From Oligoflexales bacterium (GTDB taxonomy: Bacteria > Bdellovibrionota_B > Oligoflexia > Oligoflexales > JALZUQ01), in assembly GCA_041740975.1 (NCBI GenBank), contig JBGSKV010000088.1, positions 33,734 through 97,733 on the forward strand: DNA of 64,000 nucleotides. Direction: 5' to 3'. The stretch's first letter is position 1, and the number at the start of each line of letters is the position of its first letter. The notes beneath the pieces were generated by a model, which saw only the letters and a program-made list of their open reading frames with translations, was not told the origin of the DNA and made no database searches. Of the stretch, positions 28,063 to 46,313 are shown one piece after another. The position numbers were made by a program, and so were the translations under genes.

Positions 28063-30462
28063 TCAGCGACACACCACATCACCAAAGTCAAAATAATATT
28101 CAATTTTCGCAACCACCGGAAGTTTGATTTCGCATTTCAAGTCTTGATCATGGATTCGCGCGACTTCACCCGACTTTAACTCGGCCTGAAAAGCGCCGTC
28201 GTCTTCTACGTAAAAAATCCCAGATTCCGTCACGACTTTGCGATTTCTGATAAGATTGCCTCGCGCATCTTTTAACCTACCAAGTGCAATAAAAATCTTT
28301 GAAATTCTAAATTTTGCAAAATGCACATGACCAGGAAAAAGCGTCACCGTCTCATCATGTCCATCGTAAGACACTAACGAAGATTTTGATGCAGGAGCAA
28401 CCCTTACATTATGGGCTTGATATGGCGCTAACAAGAACGCGACTGATCCCGTGCCTTTGACAGACTTCGTTCCCTGGCCATCAATAAAAATAATTGTCTC
28501 AGCTTTTTCATCGAAATTTTCAAGCTGCACGACGAGAGTACTTTCGCCAAGATCCGAAGGTCCGGTTGCAAACTCACCCTTGTTATTGATGATTAGTGAC
28601 GTCCCCAAACTCAACCTTCGGCCCGAAGTGGTCGTGAATGGCGTCTTATAAATACTTGTTCCAATTCCAAAGTCACCCCACCGTGTGCCATATTCGTATT
28701 CGCCAAAAAATCCATCGGAATAATTCTCGCTATCTGACCAGTCCAGCTGATGATTGACCGCAATTCGGCTGCCTAGTCCAGATCGCGAATGCATGTCTTG
28801 ATAAGAAAGGCCATTGCGAACGGATGTTTTTTGTTCGAAGTCGCCAAAACGTTCGACGGCCGAGTTGGTCAATGAGAAAGGGCCCCGCCTCGTCTGCCAA
28901 CTGAGGCCAATAAAATAGACTTCGTCTTTTATATCTTTTTGCACTCCCACTTCCGCATAGAGAGTGTCCTGACTATTCTCAATCAAACTGACTCGAGACC
29001 AAAGGGCATTCATTTTCTGAATGTTTTTTTGTTCTTCCTTAACCGTTATGTGCTGATACCGAACGTCAAACCAATCAAAACTCTTGGAAGCGACGAGGGA
29101 CAGTCGTTCGCGATTCACCAGTTTCGTATCACGCATAAAGGGCAATGGCTCTGTCGGATCAACCACTGTGTCGATGGGATACACTCGTTCTTGTTCAGTG
29201 GAGATAAGATTGGACCTTTCAAAATCAGCACTCAAATTCAAGCCTAGAAAGGTGCCGGAGAGACCTATGTTTAGACCCAATGAGCTGCTCTCACCCCAAG
29301 AGGTAGAGGCAAGAAGTAGTGTCTCTCGGTAAAAACCCGTAAACCCAAAAATATAAGTTTGGTCGTGCTGGTTTCCATAACTCGCAAACGTAAGGTCAGA
29401 CACTTCATTCAAGCGCGTTCGGTACTGCAGTTGATAGTGATACTTGTCTTCGATTTTGTAGTGCGTTCGATTTCTTCCGATATCCAAACTGAGCTGAGGA
29501 TTGCCACGAGGGACTAAATATCCAGACTTTGCATAGTATACGCGCTTCGTGCCATCAAGCCCGCCTACCCCCTCTATCACAACATCGACAAAGTAACTGC
29601 CTTGCGGAAATCGACTTGTGTCCACTTCCTGCTTACCTTGCGAAAGAATTTGTGAGTCGATCAACTGACCTTCTTTGAAAAAATTTACACGTGAACGAAT
29701 GGGCACATAAAGCTCAAAGCGGCTACCACGCATGTCATTTGAGTCAGAAAGTAGTAATTGTTCTGTTGCAATGGAAAAGCCAAGAATTTTTTGAGAGGGT
29801 GCTAGTAGTGCCGACGATGTTTCTAAATACCCGACAGATGAAACAATATCCTTTCGAACATAATTTAATTTAGCAAAATCAAGCTCTCGATAGACCTCGT
29901 CCTGGCTATGTTGCTGAGACTCTCTGTATAACAACGAAAAGTCACCGATGCCATAAGACGAGCTCAGATTGTAACTGTAAACTTCCTCCCCTAAAGCATC
30001 TTGTGAAATAATGATCCGGGGCGAAATCTTGAATGCACCGACGTGATTCGATTGAACAATGTAGCTCGTGACGGAAGTGGATTTATTCTTAAAGAATTTT
30101 TCATTCAATAAAACACGCACTTGAAAGCTATTCACATCGATTTGCAGACTTCCCACATTTGGCAAAGTCCGTTCTTTGGCAATCACTCCACTAAAGAGTG
30201 GTATCAGTTCAGGTACCATTTGTGCGAAATCTACCTGTAAGAGTGAGACCACTTCATTGGGGTCCTCAAACTGGAGATCGCCTTGACTACTGTACTTAGC
30301 AGTCGCGATACCTTTATTATTTTCACCTAGATAAATATCGAAAGCGGTAAACTCATTCAGCTCCTGGGCTGAGACGTTAGTATACCCAGACAAGACGCCC
30401 GTACTACTCAGTAAACTTGCGAGTACCAGTCGGCTGATCGATTGTGAAAAAATCCTTATCAC
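28063..30462 (-). CDS. Fimbrial outer-membrane usher (TcfC/EcpC/CS1-like)
   Basis: 799 aa beta-rich; V...K.GQLIDSQ.L..G.Q.VDTS.FP.GSY.V; C-terminal GRL.D..G...D.G.F and Cys pair; follows the chaperone. Confidence 0.85.
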   Translation of the reverse strand: MIRIFSQSISRLVLASLLSSTGVLSGYTNVSAQELNEFTAFDIYLGENNKGIATAKYSSQGDLQFEDPNEVVSLLQVDFAQMVPELIPLFSGVIAKERTLPNVGSLQIDVNSFQVRVLLNEKFFKNKSTSVTSYIVQSNHVGAFKISPRIIISQDALGEEVYSYNLSSSYGIGDFSLLYRESQQHSQDEVYRELDFAKLNYVRKDIVSSVGYLETSSALLAPSQKILGFSIATEQLLLSDSNDMRGSRFELYVPIRSRVNFFKEGQLIDSQILSQGKQEVDTSRFPQGSYFVDVVIEGVGGLDGTKRVYYAKSGYLVPRGNPQLSLDIGRNRTHYKIEDKYHYQLQYRTRLNEVSDLTFASYGNQHDQTYIFGFTGFYRETLLLASTSWGESSSLGLNIGLSGTFLGLNLSADFERSNLISTEQERVYPIDTVVDPTEPLPFMRDTKLVNRERLSLVASKSFDWFDVRYQHITVKEEQKNIQKMNALWSRVSLIENSQDTLYAEVGVQKDIKDEVYFIGLSWQTRRGPFSLTNSAVERFGDFEQKTSVRNGLSYQDMHSRSGLGSRIAVNHQLDWSDSENYSDGFFGEYEYGTRWGDFGIGTSIYKTPFTTTSGRRLSLGTSLIINNKGEFATGPSDLGESTLVVQLENFDEKAETIIFIDGQGTKSVKGTGSVAFLLAPYQAHNVRVAPASKSSLVSYDGHDETVTLFPGHVHFAKFRISKIFIALGRLKDARGNLIRNRKVVTESGIFYVEDDGAFQAELKSGEVARIHDQDLKCEIKLPVVAKIEYYFDFGDVVCR

Positions 30463-32998: not shown

Positions 32999-33520
32999 TT
33001 ATTCTGGTGTGAAAACCAAAGTAATTGTTCCAGTGTAGACACCAGCGCCTACAGCTTGAAGTGCGGCTTCCAATACTTCAACGCTAAGGTTGGCGTTCAA
33101 AGTCGCGTCAGCCAATGTATCCGCAGCGCCGCCCTGACCCGTCAGTGGCACACCGTTTGCTAGCGCAGCGCGACCAACGATGCCAGTGGCATCATTAAAA
33201 TACGCGTTGTACGCAATAAGCTCTGAACCGTCAGTCAATGTGAATGCGCCACCGGCTCCTGAGCCAGATGCTGTTAACTCATAGTCACCCGGTGAGTAGT
33301 TGGTTGAAATGTTTAGGTCATCGTTGCCATTCAAATCACCAAGACCAGAATAAGAACCAAGAGAGAAGTCAGCGAAACTTCTAGCAAGGATCAATTGTGG
33401 CAAAGTCAAAGAAATGTCAGATGAACCTGTTGAAGTCACACCGATAACACCGTCTGATGCACCAAATACCGCGCTTGACATGATCAATCCCAATCCAGCT
33501 GCCAATAAACGAATTTTCAT
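32999..33520 (-). CDS. Probable major fimbrial subunit (paralogue 1)
   Basis: First gene of the operon, signal peptide, GGGAG RBS; ends YTGTITLVFTPE. Confidence 0.85.
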   Translation of the reverse strand: MKIRLLAAGLGLIMSSAVFGASDGVIGVTSTGSSDISLTLPQLILARSFADFSLGSYSGLGDLNGNDDLNISTNYSPGDYELTASGSGAGGAFTLTDGSELIAYNAYFNDATGIVGRAALANGVPLTGQGGAADTLADATLNANLSVEVLEAALQAVGAGVYTGTITLVFTPE

Positions 33521-33587
33521 AGCTACGATCTCCCAAAAAAATCAAAAGACAATTTGTCAACATGACTAAATCAACCTATGGAATTTG

Positions 33588-33613
33588 AATCGGTGGGATT
33601 TCGAATCACTTTA
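33588..33613 (-). promoter_or_regulatory. Sigma28-like promoter of the pilus operon
   Basis: Minus strand TAAAG-N15-CCGATT. Confidence 0.5.
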
Positions 33614-33769
33614 AGCCTTTCCTCAAGAATTTTTTTATAGTAATTAAAATAGGAACTTGCACAGATTTTTCAACCCTAGCTCGCTATACTTTATTGAGTT
33701 TTTAACCATCCTTACTCTTTGACCAATCGATTTCGCGACCTAAATATCCAAAAATAGTAAGATTTTCGT

Positions 33770-33795
33770 TAAAGCCCTCCTAAAGCCACCGATAA
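33770..33795 (+). promoter_or_regulatory. Sigma28-like promoter of the OmpA-family gene
   Basis: TAAAG-N14-CCGATAA. Confidence 0.45.
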
Positions 33796-33838
33796 GTCTT
33801 TGGAAAGACTGACTGCGATCTCATCTCGCGTGGGTAGA

Positions 33839-35275
33839 ATGAACTTTTCTTATTTAAAAAAATCATTTGAGTTGGCAACTGCTCTCGTGGCTCTTTGCTA
33901 TGTTCCGCAAAGCTTAGCGCAATCAATGTCGAATCAATTGTTTCTGCCAAACTATTTTGATGGACCGCATCTTTCCATCGTTCCGGCCAATCCTCTTAAA
34001 GAAAAAGAATTGCGCCTCGGGCTATTTATAGATCGCGCGACAAACTCAGGTGTTCGCCAAATTCAACCCAATGAACCGAAAGACTTTCAGAGAAAACTTT
34101 CCAATCGACTTGACGAGACCTTAAATGGAACATTGTTTTCGTCCCTTGGTTTGACAAGCCGCTTCAGCATGGCTGCCTCTGCTTCTGTTATTTTAAACTC
34201 TGAGTACGACCGCGAAAACGAAGTGATCTTCGCAAAAAAAACTGGCCTCTACGATCTCGCACTGCATTCACATTTAAGCCTCGTAAATGGCACCACTATG
34301 CAAGCTGGCCTGCAAACCACCGTTGGTTATGACCTATCTATAGACAACCCTTTTGTCGGCGACGCCGTCCCACTTTATATTGACAACAAAATCTTATTTT
34401 CAAGTGCCCTCCCATTCTTTAATTTTGCTTTCAATGCAGGTGTTCAGTACAGCCCTGCCCGATCGACCGAAAGCGCTTACCCTGGTCTTGACCCTTACGG
34501 ATGGATTGGTTCTTGGTCGACTGGTATTGCCATCGGACACGATACTGCCAAAATCTTAGTGGAATATTATGGTCAAACTCCACTGGGATCGTATGGCAAT
34601 CCCACAGCCGGCATGCGTGTATCACATGAAACTTTTTTTGGCGTACGTCTTCATATGGGTTCTTACGATTTATATTTCGGTGAGGCATCTGAACTGCGCC
34701 ACGGCATCGGTACTGCGGACCTTAGGCTTATTGCTGGGCTTAGTTATCGTTTAAGCCTACCAAAAACATATCATTCAAAACCAGCGCGACAACCTGCTCC
34801 TGTTGCAGCAAAACCCATGCCTAAGTCAACTCCAAAAGTCGCTGCGACCGCGCCGAAACTCGTTCCCGTAGCGCAAATCAATCCACCAAAGCATAGTGAG
34901 CACACGGAAACTCTAGTCCTTTACGACATAAAATTTGCAACCAACGCCGCCAATATCATTCTCGATAAACAAACCACGATGGTTTTAAACGATGTCACCG
35001 ATTTACTGCGACGTCGGAAGCCATCGCTGATTTATATTTACGGTCACACAGATGATATTGGCGACTATAAAGTCAATGACGAACTTAGCCTGAAGCGCGC
35101 GAACTCGGTACGAGATCACTTGATAGCCCGCGGATTTGACAGTCGCTTCTTCCGCACGTATGGGTACGGTGAACGCATGCCACTCTACAAAAACACCGAC
35201 GAATATTCTCGCAAAAGAAACCGTCGCGTCGAACTTAAAATTGTTTCCACAGTCGTCAAAAGCTATGGCCACTGA
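33839..35275 (+). CDS. OmpA family outer-membrane protein
   Basis: Beta-barrel-like N-terminus, Pro/Ala linker, GHTD..G....N..LS.KRA..V, GYGE..P, RNRRVE. Confidence 0.9.
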   Translation: MNFSYLKKSFELATALVALCYVPQSLAQSMSNQLFLPNYFDGPHLSIVPANPLKEKELRLGLFIDRATNSGVRQIQPNEPKDFQRKLSNRLDETLNGTLFSSLGLTSRFSMAASASVILNSEYDRENEVIFAKKTGLYDLALHSHLSLVNGTTMQAGLQTTVGYDLSIDNPFVGDAVPLYIDNKILFSSALPFFNFAFNAGVQYSPARSTESAYPGLDPYGWIGSWSTGIAIGHDTAKILVEYYGQTPLGSYGNPTAGMRVSHETFFGVRLHMGSYDLYFGEASELRHGIGTADLRLIAGLSYRLSLPKTYHSKPARQPAPVAAKPMPKSTPKVAATAPKLVPVAQINPPKHSEHTETLVLYDIKFATNAANIILDKQTTMVLNDVTDLLRRRKPSLIYIYGHTDDIGDYKVNDELSLKRANSVRDHLIARGFDSRFFRTYGYGERMPLYKNTDEYSRKRNRRVELKIVSTVVKSYGH

Positions 35276-35606
35276 ACCCCGAACGTCAACAGCATTAGTT
35301 GATAAAATCGAAGCCTTTCACAATAAAATCTCAGATATTAATTTTATATGGCTGCCATTTTTATTTTTGAAGCCAAAACCTCAGCAGCAGATAGGTTTCA
35401 AAAGAATTATGGCCATGACCGTGTGCTTTGCGGCTTACTTTTATTTGGCTTTTATAGCCAAGAAACTAATTTTTCATGATACATTTGAGTTAACAAATAT
35501 TTTGTCAGATCTTCTGCTATTTAATTTAGGATTTTTAATATGGTTTTCTTTCGTCACCAGTTACTTCTGGAATCGTCGCGCACGTCGGCTCTCATTTTCA
35601 AACTAG
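35265..35606 (+). CDS. Small hypothetical membrane protein
   Basis: ATG at 35265 overlaps the OmpA stop; hydrophobic segments; W.PFLFLKP and WNRRARRL. Confidence 0.65.
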   Translation: MATEPRTSTALVDKIEAFHNKISDINFIWLPFLFLKPKPQQQIGFKRIMAMTVCFAAYFYLAFIAKKLIFHDTFELTNILSDLLLFNLGFLIWFSFVTSYFWNRRARRLSFSN

Positions 35607-36280
35607 TTCTCGCACTTAGCATTTTACCTACATTCGCTGCAGCTCAATCTAAACCAGAGACAGTCACATATAAAGCAGTAGCCACAAATGACAAAGGCAA
35701 ACTCGCTTACAATGAGCAGCATCTTGTCACATTTGAAAACGGCAAGATTCAGAAGTCGCACACGGATTACATCGGTGCAAATGGTAAAGTCATCGCTACT
35801 CTAATCTCAGATTATAGTAAGGGCGTCGCCTTGCCTGTATATGAGTTTCATGACCTGCGAAGCGGACACCGGGAAGGCATACGGTTTCAGGATGGAGGCT
35901 TTTTAGTTTATTTTTCGGAGCCTAAAAAAGCGGAGAAGTCCGCCCCCATCAAAGAAACCAAAGACGTCTTTGCAGGGCAAGGCTGGAACTACTACTTAGT
36001 CGATCACTTAGCCGATATTGAAAAGCAGGATTTGCAGTTAAAGTTGATTTTACCGAGTGAGCTGGATTCTTACACCTTTAAAGTGAGCAAAATCAAATCC
36101 AATAACGAGATTATCGAAGCCAGACTTGGTCTTAATAATTGGTTGCTGCGCTTGATAGCGCCTAATTTACGCTTGGTTTACAATAAAGCTCAAAAACGAC
36201 TCATGGAATACGAGGGTGTATCCAATGTTGTCGACGACGATGGCAAGAAACAAACCGTTACCATTCGTTACACATACTAG
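35540..36280 (+). CDS. Hypothetical secreted beta-rich protein
   Basis: Signal-like N-terminus; L.Y.EQH, D.RSG.REG, RLMEYEGVSN. Start uncertain. Confidence 0.7.
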   Translation: MVFFRHQLLLESSRTSALIFKLVLALSILPTFAAAQSKPETVTYKAVATNDKGKLAYNEQHLVTFENGKIQKSHTDYIGANGKVIATLISDYSKGVALPVYEFHDLRSGHREGIRFQDGGFLVYFSEPKKAEKSAPIKETKDVFAGQGWNYYLVDHLADIEKQDLQLKLILPSELDSYTFKVSKIKSNNEIIEARLGLNNWLLRLIAPNLRLVYNKAQKRLMEYEGVSNVVDDDGKKQTVTIRYTY

Positions 36281-36395
36281 TTCAGAGTTTCAAATATCGA
36301 GAAGCCAAGTCATCAATCTTGGCTTCCCAAACTTTTTTTTCACCTTTACTTAAGAAGGAAGAGCGAAAAGAATTTTTTGCAATTGTCGCCATGTC
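36177..36395 (+). repeat. Direct repeat copy A, 219 bp
   Basis: Aligns without gaps to 42044-42262; 10 mismatches counted by eye. Holds the 3' end of the 35540 gene and an orphan 3' end of add. Confidence 0.95.
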
Positions 36396-36493
36396 TTGAC
36401 ATATACGGAAGGGTTGGTGGAGAGCCTCCTACGCATTTATGCAGAGAATGCCAAATTCCGGGTACTCTCATTTATTGCTATGATTCCTCGCCT

Positions 36494-36538
36494 ATGGCCA
36501 GGAATGCAGCTGTCATGGTTGCCAGGAACTCACATCAC
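36494..36538 (+). pseudogene. Possible N-terminal remnant of a RAYT/Y1 transposase
   Basis: MARNAAVMVARNSHH is in register with the MARxARVVVPGxPHH start of RAYT-type proteins; lies next to a REP-like hairpin. Confidence 0.35.
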
Positions 36539-36612
36539 TTCTCTAGCGCTTCACAAAAAGTCATTTTGCAATTTGATATTTAGGTCTCTGGAGAAGCTGC
36601 TGCCATAATCAA

Positions 36613-36665
36613 GGGACACCCGACTGGACCTGAACTTTGTCAGCTTGGGTCCAGTCGGGTGTCCC
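36613..36665. repeat. Perfect 18-bp inverted repeat (REP-like hairpin)
   Basis: GGGACACCCGACTGGACC-N17-GGTCCAGTCGGGTGTCCC. Confidence 0.9.
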
Positions 36666-36801
36666 CGGAATTCCCATAAGCGGCAGTCATTATCGTAGAT
36701 AGTGCATAGAGAAAAGGTACAGAAAAGGTACGGACGCACTTTCGGCGATTAGCCATAAGTTTTTTTTATCAGAAGTAAATCCCTAACCATTTTCCCATTT
36801 T

Positions 36802-38898
36802 TCAAGGAGGAGCTGCACACCTACCATGCGAATTGCAATAACTACTACAGCAGTTCCTCCAAGTTGAGCACTCTCGGCCGTTTCTCATTTCGACTGGGCA
36901 TGCCGGCTGCAAATCAATACATTTTCCAGCTGAACATGAAAGTCCTGAGCAACAATTTCCTTCAGCTGCTGTTCCGCAACTTTGGTTGACCGTTTTGCAA
37001 GTCGCTCCACAAACTCCGTTCTGACAAAGACCTCGACAACATTGAGCGCTCGACGTGCAGGAAAGACTGTCCGCTCGGCAGATCAATGGCAAATCTTGGC
37101 TTCGGCAAGTTTTGACTCCGTTCATTAGGAAATCCGTGCAATTAAACCCAGCGCAACACTCGGAGGCTGTTGTGCAAGTTGCGCCGCTTCCTCTACATTG
37201 TGGCGCATGATTAGCAGAACAAACCTTCGTACCAATGGTCGTAGAAAACTGACATGTGCCATTGCAACACTCAGAACTGAGAGTACACATCTGCAACTCG
37301 CTTTTGCATGCTGGAGCAGGATTCGCACACTGACCATTCAAACAAGTTCCACTACAACACTGAGAACCTGCTGTGCAGCTAGTGCTGTTTGATTGGCAGA
37401 CTTGTTTGGGCAGACACTTGTAACGATCTATTATATTGGGAGAGGTATTTCCAGGTTCGAGTTTGCACTCATTGTTTGTAGTATCACAACATGGAAAAGA
37501 GTTGCTGCAGTTTTGATTTATACTTGCACAAGTCGGTGTGGGCATAGGTGGATTGGTGGGAGTCGGGTTTTGCGGGCCGACACAGATTTGATTACCTATA
37601 GAACCTTGGCATGAATGATTAGCGTTGCAGCAATAAACCTGAGCAGTAGCACCTGGATCATTTAACCATAGTGGAATACTTCCACATTTCTGGCCACCGG
37701 AAGCACACTGAGGAATTTTGCAATGTTTTGAACTAGGGTCGCAGGCACCCGAACCAACACACCCACACTCCAAAGCAGGATTGCAGCAGTCGGCATTAGT
37801 TGCGCATAGTTCACTGTACTCGGAACACTGTGGCTCAGGATCTTGTGGTGGATTATCTTCTATCGTCTCGAACACCGCACTTACCGTTTTATTGTCAGTC
37901 ATGGTCACGAGGCAGACGCCGCTGGTAAGTGCTTCGTCATTATTCGAGCATCCCCTTAGTGACGACAATTCATATCCATCGCTAGCTTTGACATTTAATA
38001 CAATAGTATCGAACTTGTCGTATGCCTCTGTGCAGTCCGGATTGCAATTAATCCCATATCCCGAAACATTTCCTTCGCCAAAAATTCTAACGCTTAGGAG
38101 GTGTTTCGAATCCGGAGATGGCGAATGACTGCTTGACGGGTTTTCTTCACAGTTTGTAATTTTTGGCAAAAAGCCAGCCTTACCAATCCTGCATGCGTTG
38201 CTGTCTCCAGGAATGAATACTCCTGGCCTGGTAAGATTAACATCAATTATGTAACTATATAGTTGGCCGCCACATCCCGTTACGGTGAATTTGTTTACTA
38301 CATGGTTACACATAAACTCGAAACCAGAGGTAGGATTCCCATCAGCTTGCGCCATGAGTTCAGTGTAAGCAAGATTAAAAAGGCTCGCGTGCTCTTCGCA
38401 ATCGCCCTTTTGACGTAGCGTATCCTCATTGGAGGCAATTATAATCTTTGTTGCAGTGTGAACGCATTTTGCCAGCAAAATTGGGTCTTTGATATCCTTG
38501 CAACTCGCTTTGACAAAATTGACGTAAGGCATGACATCTTTATCGCAACCTCTAGTACAATTTTCCCTGCTGCAACCTATTAAGGAGCAAGCTGCGACCA
38601 AAAAGGTTGTTCCTGTTGTCGCTTTGCTTTCTATGAAAGCTTTCCACTCTTCGTATGTGAATGTTGAAGGGACACATCCACTTTGGCTACTTGGCCCTTC
38701 TGGCCCTTCAGGACCATCTAGTCCTTTCTCATAAATCGCACGGGGATCAATTATCACAGTATAATCAAAGTTTCTTTTCGCATTGTTTTTTAACTTCTCA
38801 TTAAACTTTGCGTAGACGTCATTTGAATCAATGCTTTTTACTTCTTTAGTGCATGCGCAAAGATAAACAAAAGATAAAAATATAAAAAACATTTTCAT
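36802..38898 (-). CDS. Cys-rich lipoprotein: transglutaminase-like domain, InlB-B-like repeat and nine knottin-like repeats
   Basis: LCAC lipobox; GDCEEHA...NHVVN...YIID; G.G.V...INC..DC...C.VTM...KTVSAVF; nine C-x6(-9)-C-xn-CC-xn-C-xn-C units. Confidence 0.75.
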   Translation of the reverse strand: MKMFFIFLSFVYLCACTKEVKSIDSNDVYAKFNEKLKNNAKRNFDYTVIIDPRAIYEKGLDGPEGPEGPSSQSGCVPSTFTYEEWKAFIESKATTGTTFLVAACSLIGCSRENCTRGCDKDVMPYVNFVKASCKDIKDPILLAKCVHTATKIIIASNEDTLRQKGDCEEHASLFNLAYTELMAQADGNPTSGFEFMCNHVVNKFTVTGCGGQLYSYIIDVNLTRPGVFIPGDSNACRIGKAGFLPKITNCEENPSSSHSPSPDSKHLLSVRIFGEGNVSGYGINCNPDCTEAYDKFDTIVLNVKASDGYELSSLRGCSNNDEALTSGVCLVTMTDNKTVSAVFETIEDNPPQDPEPQCSEYSELCATNADCCNPALECGCVGSGACDPSSKHCKIPQCASGGQKCGSIPLWLNDPGATAQVYCCNANHSCQGSIGNQICVGPQNPTPTNPPMPTPTCASINQNCSNSFPCCDTTNNECKLEPGNTSPNIIDRYKCLPKQVCQSNSTSCTAGSQCCSGTCLNGQCANPAPACKSELQMCTLSSECCNGTCQFSTTIGTKVCSANHAPQCRGSGATCTTASECCAGFNCTDFLMNGVKTCRSQDLPLICRADSLSCTSSAQCCRGLCQNGVCGATCKTVNQSCGTAAEGNCCSGLSCSAGKCIDLQPACPVEMRNGRECSTWRNCCSSYCNSHGRCAAPP

Positions 38899-39336
38899 AT
38901 ATAATGTTCCAGATAATTTAAAGGTTATTTCTAAAAATTCTATTTCGTATTTGAATAAAAATCAAATAGTTTATGTACCAACTGTTAATAGGTAGGGACG
39001 CACTTGCGGTAAACAAATTTGCGCTATCCATGCTTTATTCCAGATTTGAGTCCAGGCGAGTATGCTGCAAAATGGTCAGGTCACGAGCGGCAACTTAGCC
39101 ATGACCGCTCAGTGGAAAGGGTCATCGCGACCCAGCGAAGATATGCTTCGACTAGTCTGGCCGAATTTCATCGATCCGCGTCATTTTCGTCAGCCATTTC
39201 CGGGAGCATCAAAATAGATCGCAAAACAGCCTCTATAATCGACCAAATTTGCGTCGGATTTTGACAAACCTCACTTTCTTAAAGCCAAACGCCGATACGA
39301 TCCTAAATGTTTCGTTTATTTTAGAGGTACTAAGCT

Positions 39337-40200
39337 ATGCGCCTTGCGTTTTTATGGCTTTTGAGCACTGCCATAGCGTGTTCTCAAAGCGAACTAAATG
39401 TCAATCCATTGAACCCACGTTCGGTGGATTCCAATAGTTCTAAGCCTTCGACGGCGATTCCGGCAAATTTAACGACAACGGCTTGGCAAAAGTCGAATCT
39501 AACCTTTTGCTGGAATGTTGATGAGAAATGGTCTCAAACTAGTGAGATTATACAAGCTGAGTCGTTTGCATCGCAAAAAGCTCGTGAGCAGTTTAGCACA
39601 ATGACGACCGGAGTTGCGGCAATTGGTTTTGAAAAATGTACCCAAGTAGAAAACCCAGATGTCATTATCATTTGGACCGAAGCTGACATAGAGGGCGGCG
39701 CGGCTAGTCATTTTGGCCGTTTGTATGGCGGCACGACTCCAAGAGCTAATATGGGGTCCATATCTAAACCTGCTATTCACCTAAATCCAATCAGCATCAA
39801 TCGTACAGCTGAGTTAGCTCGAACATCTTTTCAAAATGTTTTGGCTGAAAACTTATTACATGAAATTGGCCATATTGTAGGTTTATTCCATGAACATGGG
39901 CATCCCCAATCAACTTGCAGCGTAAAAGAAGACACCTTGGGATTATTCAAGCAGTTTTTTCCGCAACTTGTAGATACGGTTGACATCTTTGCCCCGACCT
40001 ATGACCCATACTCAGTGATGAGTTATTGCAAAACTCACGCCTTACTCCGATCAAGTCAAAATCACGACTCACAACTTGACCCAAGTAGGGTTCAACCAGG
40101 ACTATCGTTAACTGATAAATCTAGGCTTCGAGATATGTATAAAGGTCTTCCTCAGGATGCGGCGCTAATCGAAGTCGAACCAAAGCAAAATTTAAATTAA
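39337..40200 (+). CDS. Metzincin zinc metalloprotease lipoprotein
   Basis: AIAC lipobox; HEIGHIVGLFHEH; YDPYSVMSY Met-turn. Confidence 0.88.
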   Translation: MRLAFLWLLSTAIACSQSELNVNPLNPRSVDSNSSKPSTAIPANLTTTAWQKSNLTFCWNVDEKWSQTSEIIQAESFASQKAREQFSTMTTGVAAIGFEKCTQVENPDVIIIWTEADIEGGAASHFGRLYGGTTPRANMGSISKPAIHLNPISINRTAELARTSFQNVLAENLLHEIGHIVGLFHEHGHPQSTCSVKEDTLGLFKQFFPQLVDTVDIFAPTYDPYSVMSYCKTHALLRSSQNHDSQLDPSRVQPGLSLTDKSRLRDMYKGLPQDAALIEVEPKQNLN

Positions 40201-40242
40201 AAATTTGATTGAAGCACTCGTCTTTTGGAAAGTTTAAAGTAC

Positions 40243-40730
40243 TCAAGTAAAATGAAAATCTATATGCTGCTTAATGAAAGTTGAAATAAAATAATAGCTG
40301 TGGTCATAGCCTTCTTGAAATCGACAGTACAATAGCTGACCCTTCACCTCACTGGCATCTATAAAGTTTTTCGTCAAAAACTGATTTTCCAAAAATTCAT
40401 CTTTCGTGCTCTGGTCGATCAAAATCGTGTCCGAGCGTTTTTTGCCCGCTTCCAGAAGCTCGCAAGCATCCCATTCCTTCCATTTGCTAAGGTCGTCGCC
40501 AAGATAATCCTGAAAAGCATTTCGACCCCAAGGGCATCGCGTTGGATTGACGATAGGAGAAAAGGCCGACACAGATTTGAACTTAGTGGGCTCGCGAAGT
40601 CCCATAATTAAAGCCCTATGCCCACCCATCGAATGACCACTCAATGCCATGCGATCGTGACGAAACTGAAAATTCGCCAACAATAGATCATAGAATTCTT
40701 TGCTAACGTAGTCGCACATCCAGTAGTGTT
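40243..40730 (-). pseudogene. fghA: 5'-truncated S-formylglutathione hydrolase
   Basis: GHSMGGH, SVSAFSPI.NP...PWG..AF, GYDHSYYFISTF; the N-terminal part is replaced by the IS91-like fragment. Confidence 0.85.
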
Positions 40731-41829
40731 AGGCAATATCGCTTGGTTATGAGAAAGACAAACTGCATGCAGGAGGTGCAACATTTATTCAGCGATTTGG
40801 TTCATCTTTAAATCTGAATGTCCATTTTCATATGCTATTTATTGAAGGTGTTTACCTTGATAGAAGTAATCAAAACCTTAAACCAAAATTTATTCCCACC
40901 CCTCCGCCCACAGATGATCAAATACTTCTAGTTGTGGCTAGAATTTCAAAACGCATCATAAAACTTCTTCGAAAAGAAGGGTATTTAGATAAAAGTACCA
41001 TTGAAGCTATTCGTACTAGTCATGATCCATTATTTAGTGAAGAACCAGAACATTCGCGAAGTATGAGTGCCTCGATAAAACATATGATTGCATTTGGGCC
41101 TAGAGCTGGTCAGAAGGTGCGAACCCTTAAAATAGCCAGATCATTTGGCGAAGATGGCTAAAAAGCAAAACTTATTAAAGAGCGCTGTGCAGCGATTAAC
41201 GGCTTTAGTTTGCATGCTGATGTAAGAATTAAAGCTAAAAAGCGTGACAAGTTAGAAAAACTTGTGCGTTATACTGCGAGGGGAGCTTTTTCACATAAGC
41301 GTTTATCTCAGGATAAAAATGGTGATTTGCTTTACGAACTTAAAACTCCGTGGAGTGATGGGACCACCCATATAAAACTCAGTCCTATGGAACTAATTGA
41401 AAAGCTTTGTGCTTTGATTCCACTACCGAACTATAATTTGTTTCGTTACTGCGGAGTGCTTGCTCCCAACTCAAAGCTCAGAAGACATATCGTTCCCAAT
41501 CCAAAAGCAGGGGAGGTGCAAGCAACCTCAGAAAGTGGCGATTCAACCCCACCAGCTACGAGATATTCGTCGGGTCACGCGAGCCGGCGAGCGGGAGGAA
41601 AAACTTTTGAAGAGGTCATTCGGCCTTGATTTGAGCAGATCGGGTCACGCGAGCTGGCGAGCGGGAGGATTCTTGCTATTCAGAAAACTTCAAAGCCGTT
41701 GCGATGATTGAAGATCCCGATATCGTGCAAAAGATCCTTCTGGCTGTTGGTTTGGAAGCAAGAGCCCCACCCATTGCGCCTGCCAGAACCGCGCAAGAGC
41801 TAGAATACACCAACTACTTTGATGAGTGA
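40731..41829 (+). pseudogene. IS91/ISCR-family (Y2 HUH) transposase pseudogene
   Basis: QRFGSSLNLNVHFH (HUH), GFSLHA, RYTAR, LKTPWSDGT, RYCGVLAPN, IEDP...KIL...RAPP.APAR; 5' truncated, in-frame TAA at 41159-41161, two frameshifting insertions. Confidence 0.9.
41570..41669 (+). repeat. Two copies of a 30-bp GC-rich sequence
   Basis: TCGGGTCACGCGAGCYGGCGAGCGGGAGGA at 41570-41599 and 41640-41669, one mismatch. Confidence 0.92.
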
Positions 41830-41986
41830 TTTGTTGTCCACGGATGTACAACTCGACGAGGTGACGTTGTTGCTCGCTTTCAAATCGAGTAGGCGCGTGT
41901 ATATGGCGAATTTTTCTGGTAAAGACTCAACCAGACCGATAAAATCAAGTTTCGGAAAGGACTCCATATGGGAATGGGGGCCAGGA

Positions 41987-42043
41987 TTTGGGTTTTGTGA
42001 GCCCAAAGCATCGATAAAAAAGGGCTTTATAATTCCTATCCGC
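41987..42043 (+). mobile_element. oriIS-like end of an IS91-family element
   Basis: Hairpin TTTGGGTT...AGCCCAAA, then GGGCTTTATAATTCCTATCCGC, resembling the TTCCTAT core of IS91/ISCR oriIS; about 200 bp downstream of the transposase. Confidence 0.7.
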
Positions 42044-42262
42044 TTTACAACAAAGCTCAAAAACGACTCATGGAATACGAGGGTGTATCCAATGTTGTCG
42101 ACGACGATAGCAAGAAACAAACCGTTACCATTCGTTACACATACTAGTTCAGAGTTTCAAATATCGAGAAGCCAAGGTATCAATCTTGGCTTCCCAAACT
42201 TCTTTCTCACCTTCGCTTAAGAATGAAGAGCGAAAAGAGTTTTTTGCAATTGTCGCCATGTC
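42044..42262 (+). repeat. Direct repeat copy B, 219 bp
   Basis: See copy A; holds an orphan 3' end of the 35540 gene and the true 3' end of add. Confidence 0.95.
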
Positions 42263-43162
42263 CCCTACCCCTAGTCCCAATGCGATTTGCGTTTCTTCGT
42301 AGTTCTGCAGCATATAGCCGCCAAAATAAGCTGGATCATCACTATTGATGGAAACATTCAACCCCTCATCTAAAAGCTTTTTCAGATTGTGTTTCGTCAA
42401 ATCAGGAAAAACGCAAAGCTTGACGTTCGACAATGGACAAACCGTCAGCGGAACACTCTCTTTACGCAAATGTGCCACTAATTCTGAATCTTCTAAACAG
42501 CGAACGCCGTGATCGACTCGTTTCACTTTTAACAAGTTCAATGCCTGCCAGATGTAGTCGGGCGGACCTTCTTCGCCTGCATGCGCCACAGTCATAAGAC
42601 CTAGTTCTCGCGCCTTCGCAAAAACTCTCTCGAACTTTTCTGGCGGGTGTCCGACTTCCGAGGAGTCCAATCCGACCGCAACGATCTTGTCTAAATATGG
42701 CGTGGCCTGTTTAAGCGTTTCTAAAGCCATTTCCTCAGGTAAATGCCGCAAAAAGCACATAATCAGCAATGAACTGATTTGAAACTGACTTTTAGCATCC
42801 TTCATGGCGCGATGAAGGCCACTGATGACCGTCCCAAATGCGACGCCTCTATCCGTGTGAGTTTGAGGATCAAAAAATAACTCCGCATGAGTAACGTTGT
42901 CTTCTTGGCATTTTTTAAAATAAGCCATGGCAAGATCATAAAAATCTTGTTCTTCGATCAAAACGCCCGCACCTGCATAGTAGATGTCCAAGAAACTTTG
43001 AAGATTGTTGAATTGATAAGCAGATTTTATTTCCTGGACAGATTTGTACTTCAGTTCAATTTTGTTCCGCTTCGCTAGTGCGAACATAAGCTCTGGCTCA
43101 AGCGAACCTTCTATATGCAAATGCAGTTCGGCCTTTGGTAAGGCTTTTAAATACTCATGCAT
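42149..43162 (-). CDS. add: Adenosine/adenine deaminase
   Basis: [52 protein letters not shown]. Confidence 0.95.
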
Positions 43163-43248
43163 GTTTTACGCCTTTTTTGTCAATTCCCCAAAATCCTAGC
43201 AGTTTTCCAGGCCTCATGATAGTTCTGATGTTTCTGGAGGTCAGCTTC

Positions 43249-43725
43249 ATGATCACGCCACAACTTGCACATACCTTTTATGAAACTGCTGTCGGTACAT
43301 TGACGATAACCGCCCATGAGAAGGGCCTTGTTCAATTAAATTGGGTCAAGTCGTCAATAATTTTAGGAGATGAGGATCCGAACCACCCCATTCTTAGAAA
43401 AACTGTGAAGCAATTGGACGAATATTTTGCAAAAAAACGTCAACAGTTTGATTTGCCCTTAGACATGCGGGGAACGACCTTTCAAAAGGAAGCATGGCAG
43501 GCCTTACAGGAAATTGGCTATGGTAAAACCTGTTCTTACAGCGAACAAGCAAAACGAATCGGTAGGTCCAAAGCCTTTCGCGCCGTAGGTTCCGCCAACG
43601 GCAAAAACCCGCTCCCCATCATTGTTCCCTGCCATCGAGTCATATCGGCATCTGGTAAAATGGCTGGATATACCGGCGGATTGGACAAGAAGATTTTTTT
43701 ATTGGCCCATGAGTCAAACAACTAA
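43249..43725 (+). CDS. ogt: Methylated-DNA-protein-cysteine methyltransferase
   Basis: GTTFQ..AW, RAVGSANGKNP, PCHRV; GGAGG RBS before ATG 43249. Confidence 0.95.
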   Translation: MITPQLAHTFYETAVGTLTITAHEKGLVQLNWVKSSIILGDEDPNHPILRKTVKQLDEYFAKKRQQFDLPLDMRGTTFQKEAWQALQEIGYGKTCSYSEQAKRIGRSKAFRAVGSANGKNPLPIIVPCHRVISASGKMAGYTGGLDKKIFLLAHESNN

Positions 43726-43822
43726 ATTTCTATAAAAAAAATAAAATCATTTACTGCTATTTGCTCACAGCCCTACTATAATTATTGTTCTAGAATTCAA
43801 TAATCATTTACAGGAGGCTCTC

Positions 43823-44332
43823 GTGAAGTTCTTTGTCACTCTCACTCTTTTCAGTTTTGTCTTAACTGGTTGCGCAGGTATGTTCACTCCAGCAGTTCCC
43901 CTTTCACAAGCCGAAGTTAAGCGTTTAACGACTTGTGACAATGCCGATTTGAAAACAATCCGCAAAAACCTTCTTCTCGCTGGTTATGTTGTGACCAAAA
44001 CTACGGACGATGATCTTGTCACTGACTTCAAACAAGTCGGCGCCGGCTCATACAATAAAAAATGGGTTCGGGTTACTGCAGTTAAAGTTGACGACAAAAC
44101 TATCCGTTTCAAAACTCGTGAGAAGCTAGTTTCTACTGAACGGGTTGCAGATGAAACTGAAGAAAGCTCATACACAGGCTCACGTTATGCTAGCAAAGGC
44201 CGTCACAAGGGCCCGACAAAGCAAACGACAACTTACCGCAATCAAACAGTTCAAAACGAAACAGATTCTCTATACACGGATCGCACACGTCAAATGCACG
44301 AAACTCTTCACGCTGAAATTTGTAATCAGTAG
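43823..44332 (+). CDS. Hypothetical lipoprotein
   Basis: AGGAGG RBS, LTGC lipobox. Confidence 0.7.
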   Translation: MKFFVTLTLFSFVLTGCAGMFTPAVPLSQAEVKRLTTCDNADLKTIRKNLLLAGYVVTKTTDDDLVTDFKQVGAGSYNKKWVRVTAVKVDDKTIRFKTREKLVSTERVADETEESSYTGSRYASKGRHKGPTKQTTTYRNQTVQNETDSLYTDRTRQMHETLHAEICNQ

Positions 44333-44339
44333 TGGCTAC

Positions 44340-44400
44340 ACACTCGCGAAGCGAGTGAGGATTAGTTTATTAAGCTCCGCCCTCACCGGCGGAGTTTTTA
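44340..44400 (+). repeat. Two-hairpin intergenic repeat (solo copy); the second hairpin is terminator-like
   Basis: CACTCGC-GAA-GCGAGTG, spacer, CTCCGCC-CTCACC-GGCGGAG-TTTTT; homologous to 60763-60830. Confidence 0.8.
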
Positions 44401-45447
44401 TTTTGGCCAAAAAACGCTGGAGCATTTCAAAAACATTAGCTCGTCAGCTCCTAAAGCCGGCAGGACATGAGATTCGGACGCCAGCAAACGTATCATCTGC
44501 ATACCTCGCCATAGATTCTCATATTTATTTCCATTTTCGTTTATATTGCCATGAATCAGCCGGGCTACTTCAAAAGTTGCGACAGTGTCGAAATAAATAG
44601 TGTCAACACTCAGTCGGCCTACTCCCAAAAGTAAACTATTGAATTCCTCGGTTGGCAGAGACTGAACAAACTTCTTACTATCTGCAAACACTTTGACTGC
44701 GCCACCTTTTTCCATAGCATCAGCCAAGTCACCCTCATCCAAAAAAAGTAAGCTTCCCTTGGCGTCCACCCCAATCGGCAAAACCACAGACACAACAGAC
44801 TGATCTGTGTCGGGAACAAAGTAAGTCAGATCTGCAGGTTTTTGGAAGGCCCGAAAAATTTGATTTCTCAGTGCCAAGTCTGGCAGGGTGCTTGCACTAA
44901 ATTCGACTAGCCGCTCGCTAGGCACTCGATTCGATAACCTGGCAAAGCTAAGAATCATTGATCCTTCGACGATATACCCTTCAATCAAGTTTGTCTGAAT
45001 CTCAGCTCCTAAGGTTAAAACGCCAACATGCCCCGGAATCTTCGCAATATCCACCGGCTGACGGCGAACTCTTAGATTCAGCTCTATAACTTTTCCAACT
45101 TGCATGCGTTCATGATCATGCTGAAAGACCAAACCTGTTGCGATCACATCAAAAAACTCCCGCTGAAAACTCAATGCAGGCAAATCGATTGTACGCATTG
45201 CAGAGGAGGTCGGAGACAAATTGTATGCAAATGTATTTCCCATATGCGGAAGCTTTTCCCGACCGTGTGGATTCATAAGTGTGAGGGTTCCAGACACCGA
45301 ATCCAATAAGACTTCTGAATGACTTCCTATCAATGTAAGTGTCGTTTTCACTTTTACATGCGGAACATCAAGAGGAGCCGCCAAGGCAAATTGACCATTT
45401 AAAATCAAAGGTCCCAGTAAAACTAAAATTTGTCGGATTATTCGCAT
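44398..45447 (-). CDS. Hypothetical secreted protein
   Basis: 349-aa ORF with signal peptide; no recognised motif. Confidence 0.6.
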   Translation of the reverse strand: MRIIRQILVLLGPLILNGQFALAAPLDVPHVKVKTTLTLIGSHSEVLLDSVSGTLTLMNPHGREKLPHMGNTFAYNLSPTSSAMRTIDLPALSFQREFFDVIATGLVFQHDHERMQVGKVIELNLRVRRQPVDIAKIPGHVGVLTLGAEIQTNLIEGYIVEGSMILSFARLSNRVPSERLVEFSASTLPDLALRNQIFRAFQKPADLTYFVPDTDQSVVSVVLPIGVDAKGSLLFLDEGDLADAMEKGGAVKVFADSKKFVQSLPTEEFNSLLLGVGRLSVDTIYFDTVATFEVARLIHGNINENGNKYENLWRGMQMIRLLASESHVLPALGADELMFLKCSSVFWPK

Positions 45448-45575
45448 AAGGAAAAACCACCTTAAAATAGGAGTTTTTCTATAATATTTTAGAGTTTTTA
45501 AGTCAATGTCACTGGAAAAATGCAGATTTTAAAGATGCGTATCGCCATGAAATTCTGGCTTTAATTAGTCAATGT

Positions 45576-46313
45576 TCAAAACCCCAAACACATCGCTTGC
45601 AGTCGATTTTTACAGGCTGACGGCAAAAACTCCATAGCATCCTGTGCGCGGTGATTGGATAGGCGTTCAGCGTACTTCGACCGCGAATGAATAGCCGTTT
45701 TTTGCAATCCACTCATATCGATGTTAATCCAACAAGGAATCAAGCTATTGTAGCTAAAGTCAACTAAAGTGGAAAAATCCTGCAGAATATTTATTTCCCA
45801 AAGTTTTGAAACTGGCTCGATAAACAAAATCGTCTGTTTATGACCCAAACCCACTTTCAGCTCATCCAATGCTTTTGGCACAAAAGTTTTCCCGGGCTGT
45901 ACATAAAGAACATTCAGTCCAAAACGCCAAGCTGCTGCCAAAGCATAAGGCCATAAAATTCGCTCATTCTGCTCTGTTCGAAAAATTCGGCCTTTGTGAA
46001 TCTGATTCTGAGCAATACTACGCAACTCCTGCGACAGTGCTCCGTCCAATGTAAAAGACATTGGCAAACTCAATGGTTTTTCCGAAAGTCCACGTGCGCT
46101 TTTCACCAGCCTTTGCAATTGGGAGAGGCGGGACTGGAGATCGCAAAACTCAACCGAGTTGGATTGTGCGCAGCTTTTCTGGCCCGTTCCCTCACAACAA
46201 GGAAACATGGTAGGGTCAATTTTAAGATGGGAGCTTTGGTACTTTAGACCGTTAAGCACACCATTCAGATGAGGTTGAGAGAGTAGCTTGAGAACGCAAT
46301 TCGATTGGGTCAT
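45576..46313 (-). CDS. Hypothetical protein, probable degenerate DnaC/IstB-like AAA+ fold
   Basis: G..V.YV, ILFIE, LV...YN...P and RL..MC follow the same order as in the upstream ATPase; no Walker A. Confidence 0.5.
   Translation of the reverse strand: MTQSNCVLKLLSQPHLNGVLNGLKYQSSHLKIDPTMFPCCEGTGQKSCAQSNSVEFCDLQSRLSQLQRLVKSARGLSEKPLSLPMSFTLDGALSQELRSIAQNQIHKGRIFRTEQNERILWPYALAAAWRFGLNVLYVQPGKTFVPKALDELKVGLGHKQTILFIEPVSKLWEINILQDFSTLVDFSYNSLIPCWINIDMSGLQKTAIHSRSKYAERLSNHRAQDAMEFLPSACKNRLQAMCLGF

Follow-up and report, generated by a model that had tools for sequence, protein, structure and literature searches.

We describe a 5,648-bp insert in the genome of an uncultured Oligoflexales bacterium (GenBank assembly GCA_041740975.1) that is flanked by two diverged 219-nt direct repeats, one of which starts at the first base past the end of a decayed insertion sequence (IS) of the IS91/ISCR family. 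The insert lies within a 64,000-nt stretch of contig JBGSKV010000088.1 (positions 33,734 to 97,733, forward strand), referred to below as the window; coordinates are those of the window unless another contig is named. We propose that an IS91/ISCR-family rolling-circle element captured the insert as one unit, and that this unit arrived as a circle and was integrated by a single crossover in the sequence it shared with the resident chromosome, a proposal to which we assign a probability of roughly one half.

The assembly is a metagenome-assembled genome (MAG; 3.16 Mb in 130 contigs, 87% complete), with a depth of ~5x in the metagenome runs compared. When positions 34,000-44,500 of the window were searched for repeats and the hits compared pairwise, the sole long direct repeat was an ungapped pair of 219 nt at 36177-36395 (copy A) and 42044-42262 (copy B), with a start-to-start distance of 5867 nt. 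The two copies differ at 10 positions (95.4% identity, that is, 4.6% divergence; BLAST E ~3e-97) and contain identical stretches of 57 and 67 nt; no similarity was found past either repeat edge in the pairwise comparison. Copy number was taken from BLAST against the assembly, and copies A and B are the only two occurrences in all 3.16 Mb. An earlier interpretation of the window made from its letters alone (the sequence-only reading) had described ungapped 219-bp direct repeats with 10 mismatches around 5.6 kb, each copy completing one host gene and carrying a fragment of the other. The repeat search and pairwise comparison bear out the first part of this description, and comparison of the open reading frames (ORFs) bears out the second.

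Two convergent genes end within the duplicated segment, their stop codons separated by one base. On the left, a resident gene here called geneX (35540-36280, forward strand; 246 aa with a signal-peptide-like N-terminus) has its last 104 nt inside copy A, which continues with one spacer base and a 114-nt orphan tail of add (36282-36395, reverse strand; 37 codons plus stop, in frame, with an 89% amino-acid match to add). On the right, copy B carries an orphan 104-nt tail of geneX (42044-42147, forward strand; 34 codons plus stop, 91% amino-acid match, one synonymous and one G to S difference from the tail in copy A), followed by the genuine 3' end of add, an intact adenosine deaminase gene (42149-43162, reverse strand; PF00962, E 4e-92) whose last 114 nt lie inside the repeat. 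No Pfam or NCBIfam family matched geneX. Its nearest protein-atlas clusters, annotated 'outer membrane lipoprotein-sorting' or DUF3108-like, serve as a lead only, and some genomes of the order encode homologues (32-44% identity), none of which adjoins add.

The nucleotide differences between the copies comprise 5 synonymous and 5 non-synonymous changes, with no indel and no stop; at the protein level, add has two K/E changes and one D/T change, and geneX one G/S change. Under neutrality, at least 5 synonymous changes out of 10 are expected with P = 0.08, and the differences weakly resemble those of an allele rather than decay. The sequence-only reading had pointed to an orphan add fragment that stays in frame and carries several synonymous differences. 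All four codon pairs it listed (AAT/AAC, TCC/TCA, AGT/AGC, GAA/GAG) are present, but the fragment differs from the real add tail in three further, amino-acid-changing codons that it had omitted. Comparison with 27 Add homologues did not reveal the ancestral state of these three residues, the C-termini being too variable in those columns to polarise the changes.

The left edge of copy B was then compared with the end of the IS, which was defined independently of the repeat boundary. Copy B starts one base after ...TTCCTATCCGC, which ends at 42043. This terminus closes a non-coding region of oriIS type (41830-42043, forward strand) that extends for 214 nt after the transposase stop and ends in ...AAAAAAGGGCTTTATAATTCCTATCCGC. 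Aligned with the terminus of ISCR1, taken from a copy on a public plasmid, positions 42016-42043 are identical at 22 of 28 sites without a gap (shared pattern AAAAAGG.G.TTTATA.TTCCTAT.C.C), and neither sequence continues to resemble the other past a shared final column. That column lies 232 nt past the ISCR1 transposase stop, as compared with 214 nt here; the legend of Fig. 1 in PMC6218425 gives 232 nt as the length of the oriIS region. The genome itself provided a second test: five more genomic sites match the last 19 nt of the end with at most 3 mismatches, where ~0.6 would be expected by chance (calculated). Two of these sister ends, on contigs C23 and C64, additionally share the 3' transposase region upstream, and all sister ends lose similarity directly after CCGC, the flanks beyond being unrelated. 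By both independent tests, 42043 is a genuine IS91/ISCR-type oriIS end. The sequence-only reading had placed the start of copy B at the base after an oriIS and had proposed to abandon this if 42017-42043 did not align with oriIS sequences; the 22/28 match to the ISCR1 terminus and the sister ends both put the end at 42043. Were the boundary of the repeat placed at random, it would lie no further than 1 nt from the IS end at ~3 of 5,648 positions.

TTTA follows the end at 42043. The flanks of sister ends include AGCA, TATT, TAAT, GGCG and CAAT, and one of these ends is likewise followed by TTTA. Under the circle proposal, the flank at 42043 would be a circle junction and not a target. The only repeat that flanks the island is the diverged 219-nt one; there is no short target-site duplication, and no inverted repeats of at least 30 nt were found in 34,000-44,500. 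A search for hairpins at the presumed stop site and at oriIS gave folds of 36120-36230 and 41960-42043 that were no different from shuffles (z -0.9 to +0.7). When the 500 nt past each of 12 oriIS-like ends were compared with the genome, a duplication was found at this locus only.

The transposase gene to which this end belongs is present as a remnant at 40738-41829 (forward strand), delimited by PF04986, NF052416, a three-frame reading and alignment to sister copies. The ORFs at 40745-41629 match Y2_Tnp (PF04986) over positions 3-182 of 183 (91 bits, one internal stop). The ISCR clade Ia model NF052416 matches in two pieces (171-297 and 317-427 of 509), with a score that, for a fragment such as this, stays under the full-length cut-off. 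Both matches agree with the earlier assignment of the element to the IS91 type. The HFH motif is visible, amino-acid identity to ISCR1 is ~37%, and the gene is oriented rightwards, toward the oriIS end, so that oriIS lies downstream of the gene as in IS91/ISCR elements. Measured on the family model, the remnant starts near residue 171 (~170 N-terminal codons are missing) and is interrupted by a TAA stop at 41159-41161 and by two frameshifting 26-nt insertions. A terIS end with a subterminal palindrome was not found at the locus; the transposase gene has lost its 5' third together with all sequence upstream, and the remnant adjoins a fragment of fghA at 40731-40737. The transposase is a dead remnant that cannot act, and any mobilisation would therefore have required transposase in trans. 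In the whole genome only one copy retains the 5' half of the gene. One long open IS91-type frame elsewhere (C6:31274-32683, 470 codons), which runs off its contig end, could act in trans. Many IS91/ISCR-type ends and transposase fragments were seen on contigs C17, C23, C64, C102, C119, C83, C1 and C6; most copies are remnants at breakpoints, and more ends appear at lower stringency.

The cargo between copy A and the IS is contiguous and is broken within genes at both ends. At its left end, a 3' fragment of 70 codons of an ABHD18-like alpha/beta-hydrolase gene (36396-36608, forward strand; PF09752 positions 296-351 of 351, E 1.7e-4, borderline) is cut exactly at the repeat boundary (36396). No homologue of this fragment was found in 60 relatives, among which there was one match at E 0.005. 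At its right end, a fragment of an S-formylglutathione hydrolase gene (fghA/esterase D; 40243-40730, reverse strand; TIGR02821 positions 117-271 of 275, E 1e-56; PF00756 positions 96-251 of 251) encodes the C-terminal 158 residues, ~116 N-terminal residues being missing, and the IS remnant begins 7 nt past it. Since the genome has its own intact fghA elsewhere (C26:25963-26785, 274 aa) with 71.6% nucleotide identity to 40243-40730, the island fragment is a foreign second copy; with the repeats at ~95% identity, at least the fghA part of the cargo came from a more distant source than the repeat segment. Gene fragments at either end of the cargo, a second and diverged fghA among them, are what read-through capture would be expected to leave.

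Two genes inside the cargo are intact. One encodes a Cys-rich predicted lipoprotein of 698 aa (36802-38898, reverse strand; N-terminus ...FVYLCAC) with numerous CxxxCC-type repeats; all of its Pfam matches were sub-threshold, and matches were found in 0 of 60 relatives. The other encodes an astacin-like zinc metalloprotease of 287 aa, also a predicted lipoprotein (39337-40200, forward strand; PF01400, 22.6 bits against a cut-off of 22.5). It carries the motif HEIGHIVGLFHEH (HExxHxxGxxHEH), its atlas clusters are all astacin/M12, and it had just weak matches among 40-60 relatives. The cargo had been described as encoding surface proteins, in line with the lipoprotein prediction for both intact genes. 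Its composition is mildly atypical (tetranucleotide distance at the 94th percentile of 1,376 windows; GC 43.8% against 45.5%) and is not decisive. No recombinase or integrase family was detected among the 22 ORFs scanned in 32999-46313, and no tRNA was found in 30-48 kb, in keeping with the previous statement that the island lacks an integrase or tRNA site. The locus thus differs from an integrase-type island: neither a recombinase nor a tRNA was found in these scans, and its repeats are 219 nt long and diverged, not short identical att sites. Searches with Rfam gave 0 matches in 33-45 kb, and a promoter/terminator scan gave no excess over shuffles.

To what extent the arrangement is supported by reads was examined with Logan contigs (k = 31) from four runs of one study (hot-spring and biofilm metagenomes, ~5x depth); the runs may include the source sample, so their independence from the assembly is incomplete. 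A contig of run X2 spans 36185-36566, covering 211 nt to the left and 171 nt to the right of the junction between copy A and the cargo, and a contig of run X1 spans 42003-42701, covering 41 nt to the left and 658 nt to the right of the junction between oriIS and copy B. Both new junctions are present in reads assembled by another program. Over the 10.5 kb compared, and leaving the IS copies aside, only a handful of positions in the runs depart from the window sequence. Contig depth is alike for the island and its flanks, with hardly any contig cover at 36106-36456 in run X1. No joint skipping 5,867 nt was listed among the run contigs, nor did they show a circle, though contigs cannot show absence; depth, cover and the missing joint weigh neither for nor against the arrangement. 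In one run X1 contig, 41515 is followed directly by 41680; the 164 nt between them are missing, and the shorter of the two sides measures 30 nt. The contig probably represents a sister IS copy that lacks the two 26-nt insertions and not a variant of this locus. At the sole variable site between the identical stretches, 36242 is A in the X2 contig and 42109 is G in the X1 contig, so that the former has copy B's letter in copy A and the latter copy A's letter in copy B. The swap may reflect either a real exchange between the copies or a bubble that the k = 31 assembler collapsed.

These contigs bear on the idea that the arrangement is an assembly artefact, in which strain variants were merged, or an empty site was merged with a separate molecule bearing the diverged junction copy, so that the island as described would not be real. 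A MAG of 130 contigs that is 87% complete at ~5x depth invites such a suspicion, as do the identical stretches of 57 and 67 nt, at which short-k assemblers can switch, and the exchanged letters at 36242 and 42109 in contigs of two runs. The suspicion is countered by the contigs of an independent assembler that bridge both new junctions in two runs, possibly including the source sample. A strain with both junctions must have either the integrated form or the circle, and a 5.9-kb circle with a dead transposase and no replication gene is implausible as a stable molecule. We consider an artefact improbable.

How the layout could have arisen is suggested by what has been reported for the family. 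According to PMC13181058, IS91 transfer begins at oriIS, crosses the transposase gene and normally ends at terIS; in 1-10% of events it does not terminate there, and this failure (one-ended transposition) mobilises DNA beyond terIS. The same source describes the IS91 family as making no target duplications, with a target tetranucleotide that adjoins oriIS. In Toleman's model for complex class 1 integrons, as restated in PMC7707992, a circle generated from oriIS is rescued via homologous recombination. The present locus fits this already known gene-capture route. The unit, in the order hydrolase fragment, two lipoprotein genes, fghA fragment, truncated transposase and oriIS, would have lain within add in a donor lineage ~5% diverged at the locus. 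Replication or transfer from oriIS would have run leftwards via the IS and the cargo and for 219 nt onward, via the add tail and the geneX tail, and would have stopped in geneX immediately before TTTAC. Closure of the circle would have joined TTTAC to the oriIS end, forming the junction 42043|42044, with transposase supplied in trans. The right edge of homology, 36395|36396, would mark where the unit had earlier inserted into add of the donor. One RecA-type crossover between the circle and an intact geneX-add junction, within the 219-nt homology and with the identical 57- and 67-nt stretches usable for it, would then duplicate the 219 nt and keep the circle junction at 42043|42044. The observed layout, copy A followed by the cargo, the IS pointing to its oriIS, and copy B, is the one that a single crossover of an oriIS-closed circle yields. 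Because the 219-nt segment holds the 3' ends of both convergent genes, both would be whole after the crossover, and the 4.6% difference would place the donor outside the sampled population. The sequence-only reading had arrived at the same mechanism; its layout fits such a crossover, and the circle, the donor configuration from a related strain, the homologous recombination and the action of a transposase in trans are what we infer beyond it. More speculative, and to be held with corresponding doubt, is the fuller account in which 42043|42044 preserves a natural rolling-circle closure of oriIS onto a chance stop site in a host gene, the 4.6% divergence records inter-lineage transfer, and the end of a dead-transposase element was mobilised in trans and rescued through no more than 219 nt of imperfect homology.

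Several observations weigh against the circle proposal. The transposase present at the locus is dead, as described above. The junction between the transposase and fghA falls within the transposase gene and not at a terIS, so that simple read-through is insufficient and an extra deletion would be needed. A GTTC/CTTG-type tetranucleotide next to oriIS is absent here and at the sister ends, and at the presumed stop site, CTTGG|TTTAC, the break falls one base away from a CTTG boundary. The genome is a low-depth MAG, and contigs built with k = 31 are unable to resolve the shared stretches of 57 and 67 nt. No empty site, donor configuration or circle was found, and no close relative was found in two metagenome-collection scans, the species-representative genomes or a search of 5.8 billion proteins. 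The closest Add in the protein search is 69% identical, and the best Add is 63% identical both in the contig search of genomes and in 40-60 relatives. Add homologues at 64-67% identity bear names that, with the atlas clusters, hint at a Bdellovibrionota-like lineage, as a lead only. In these 40-60 relatives geneX homologues have at most 44% identity and never adjoin add, and metagenome-contig searches for related loci with geneX or the astacin-like protein gave no confirmed match. Finally, the sequence does not discriminate a crossover within the repeat from rival histories.

One such history reverses the order of events. The IS with its cargo would have inserted into geneX before TTTAC, with loss of the last 35 codons of the gene, and DNA of a related lineage would later have restored geneX, using a homologous end in geneX and an illegitimate end in the cargo at 36395|36396 and bringing along 114 nt of add. 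Copy B would then be native and copy A foreign. The exact coincidence of the boundary with the IS end would be an ordinary insertion junction, the arbitrary right boundary within add and a hydrolase gene would be accounted for, and a circle would be unnecessary. Homology-facilitated illegitimate recombination, an established route in naturally transformable bacteria, offers a way for the repair to occur. The scenario requires, however, a rare illegitimate join, selection for geneX and a diverged donor, and its two steps are no simpler than rescue of a circle. We judge it to have a small chance of being correct.

An old duplication that arose in place on insertion of the unit, through a staggered break or template switch for instance, and was followed by 4.6% divergence, would agree with an IS remnant that is old and decayed, with cargo that bears small repeat families of the host lineage, and with its merely mildly atypical composition (94th percentile). 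It is difficult to reconcile with the absence of target duplications by IS91-family elements stated in PMC13181058, and identical 219-nt repeats would be prone to deletion or gene conversion well before reaching 4.6% divergence. Half of the differences are synonymous and the two cargo ORFs are intact, which also argues against it, and we think this origin quite unlikely. Least convincing of all is re-insertion by the transposase without homologous recombination, in which a one-ended product running from TTTAC in the donor geneX was inserted at the same TTTA, making copy A entirely donor and copy B entirely native: the IS91 transfer-end site and the insertion target are similar tetranucleotides beside oriIS (PMC13181058) and TTTA also follows one sister end in the genome, but a four-base target offers thousands of alternative sites, the homologous one would be hit by chance only very rarely, and the sister ends have no common flank.

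Two kinds of small repeated sequence were observed in the insert. At 36613-36666 lies a perfect hairpin with a 21-bp stem (DNA fold z = -7.3), the arms of which (GGGACACCCGACTGGACC) recur at no fewer than 12 other genomic places, singly or as palindromes. It looks like a dispersed repeat of REP type; one site with an arm adjoins another IS91 fragment, on contig C17, and one run X1 contig has an additional CCGGAATT behind 36664. The 26-nt GC-rich insertions in the dead transposase (41571-41596 and 41641-41666) represent the sequence CGGGTCACGCGAGCCGGCGAGCGGGA and its variants. They were recognised by alignment to sister IS copies, from which they are absent, and the second copy accounts for the 30-nt repeat that the repeat search lists with a spacing of 70. 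An identical element (26 of 26 nt) splits two HNH-endonuclease paralogues at one codon position (C22:12427-12452 and C103:23512-23537). These paralogues are 74% identical in amino acids and ~72% in nucleotides (dN/dS ~0.08, dS saturated), and omission of the 26 nt leaves a single open frame in each, of 328 and 341 codons. More sites were seen at C16:~1528-1551, C15:~28825-28846 and C110:~39652-39679. At C83:~2314-2420, a tRNA-Arg(ACG)-like sequence begins a few bases past another oriIS-type end and is broken in its T-arm region by a variant of the element; ARAGORN calls no tRNA there. The 26-nt element may be a site-specific miniature insertion or a recoding/bypass signal.

Of the known systems, the locus most invites comparison with ISCR1 in complex class 1 integrons. 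In both, the transposase is IS91-like and the terminus almost the same, and the IS and captured genes are flanked by resident DNA that is partly duplicated in direct orientation; both lack inverted repeats, short target duplications and an integrase, and the model invokes an oriIS-closed circle and one crossover (PMC7707992). They differ in arrangement. In the integrons the order is 3'-CS, ISCR1, captured gene, 3'-CS, whereas here the captured genes are on the ter side and the duplicated segment directly abuts oriIS, so that the order of homology and cargo is swapped. The repeats of the integrons are kilobase-long and near-identical, those here are 219 nt and 4.6% diverged; the transposase here is truncated and dead, with ~37% amino-acid identity to that of ISCR1; and the host is an uncultured environmental bacterium whose cargo is without resistance genes. 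With one-ended transposition of IS91 and IS1294, as outlined in PMC13181058, the locus shares a constant oriIS end, a variable far end in neighbouring genes and mobilised flanking DNA. In contrast, an insertion made by a transposase opens the circle at the oriIS junction without duplication, while here the junction is intact and accompanied by a long diverged duplication, and no GTTC/CTTG flank is seen. Campbell-type integration of a non-replicating circle by a single crossover likewise turns a shared segment into a direct repeat around the insert, and neither gene is disrupted if the segment includes both 3' ends. Unlike in this laboratory and plasmid concept, the circle here would have been closed at a transposon end.

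ISCR/IS91 elements are credited with assembling resistance regions, and the route by which a read-through circle is formed and then rescued rests mostly on comparisons of clinical plasmids; a 2018 paper states that no ISCR element had been experimentally shown to transpose (PMC6218425). The value of the present case is limited by its origin in one low-depth MAG with no comparator genome. If the proposed history is true, the locus would provide sequence-level support for the circle-plus-recombination pathway outside clinical integrons, by way of an example from a hot-spring or biofilm bacterium in which the boundary at the IS end is clean, the repeats are diverged and the cargo has no resistance genes. 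It would suggest that this route shapes ordinary chromosomes as well, and that very short, imperfect homology can suffice for it.

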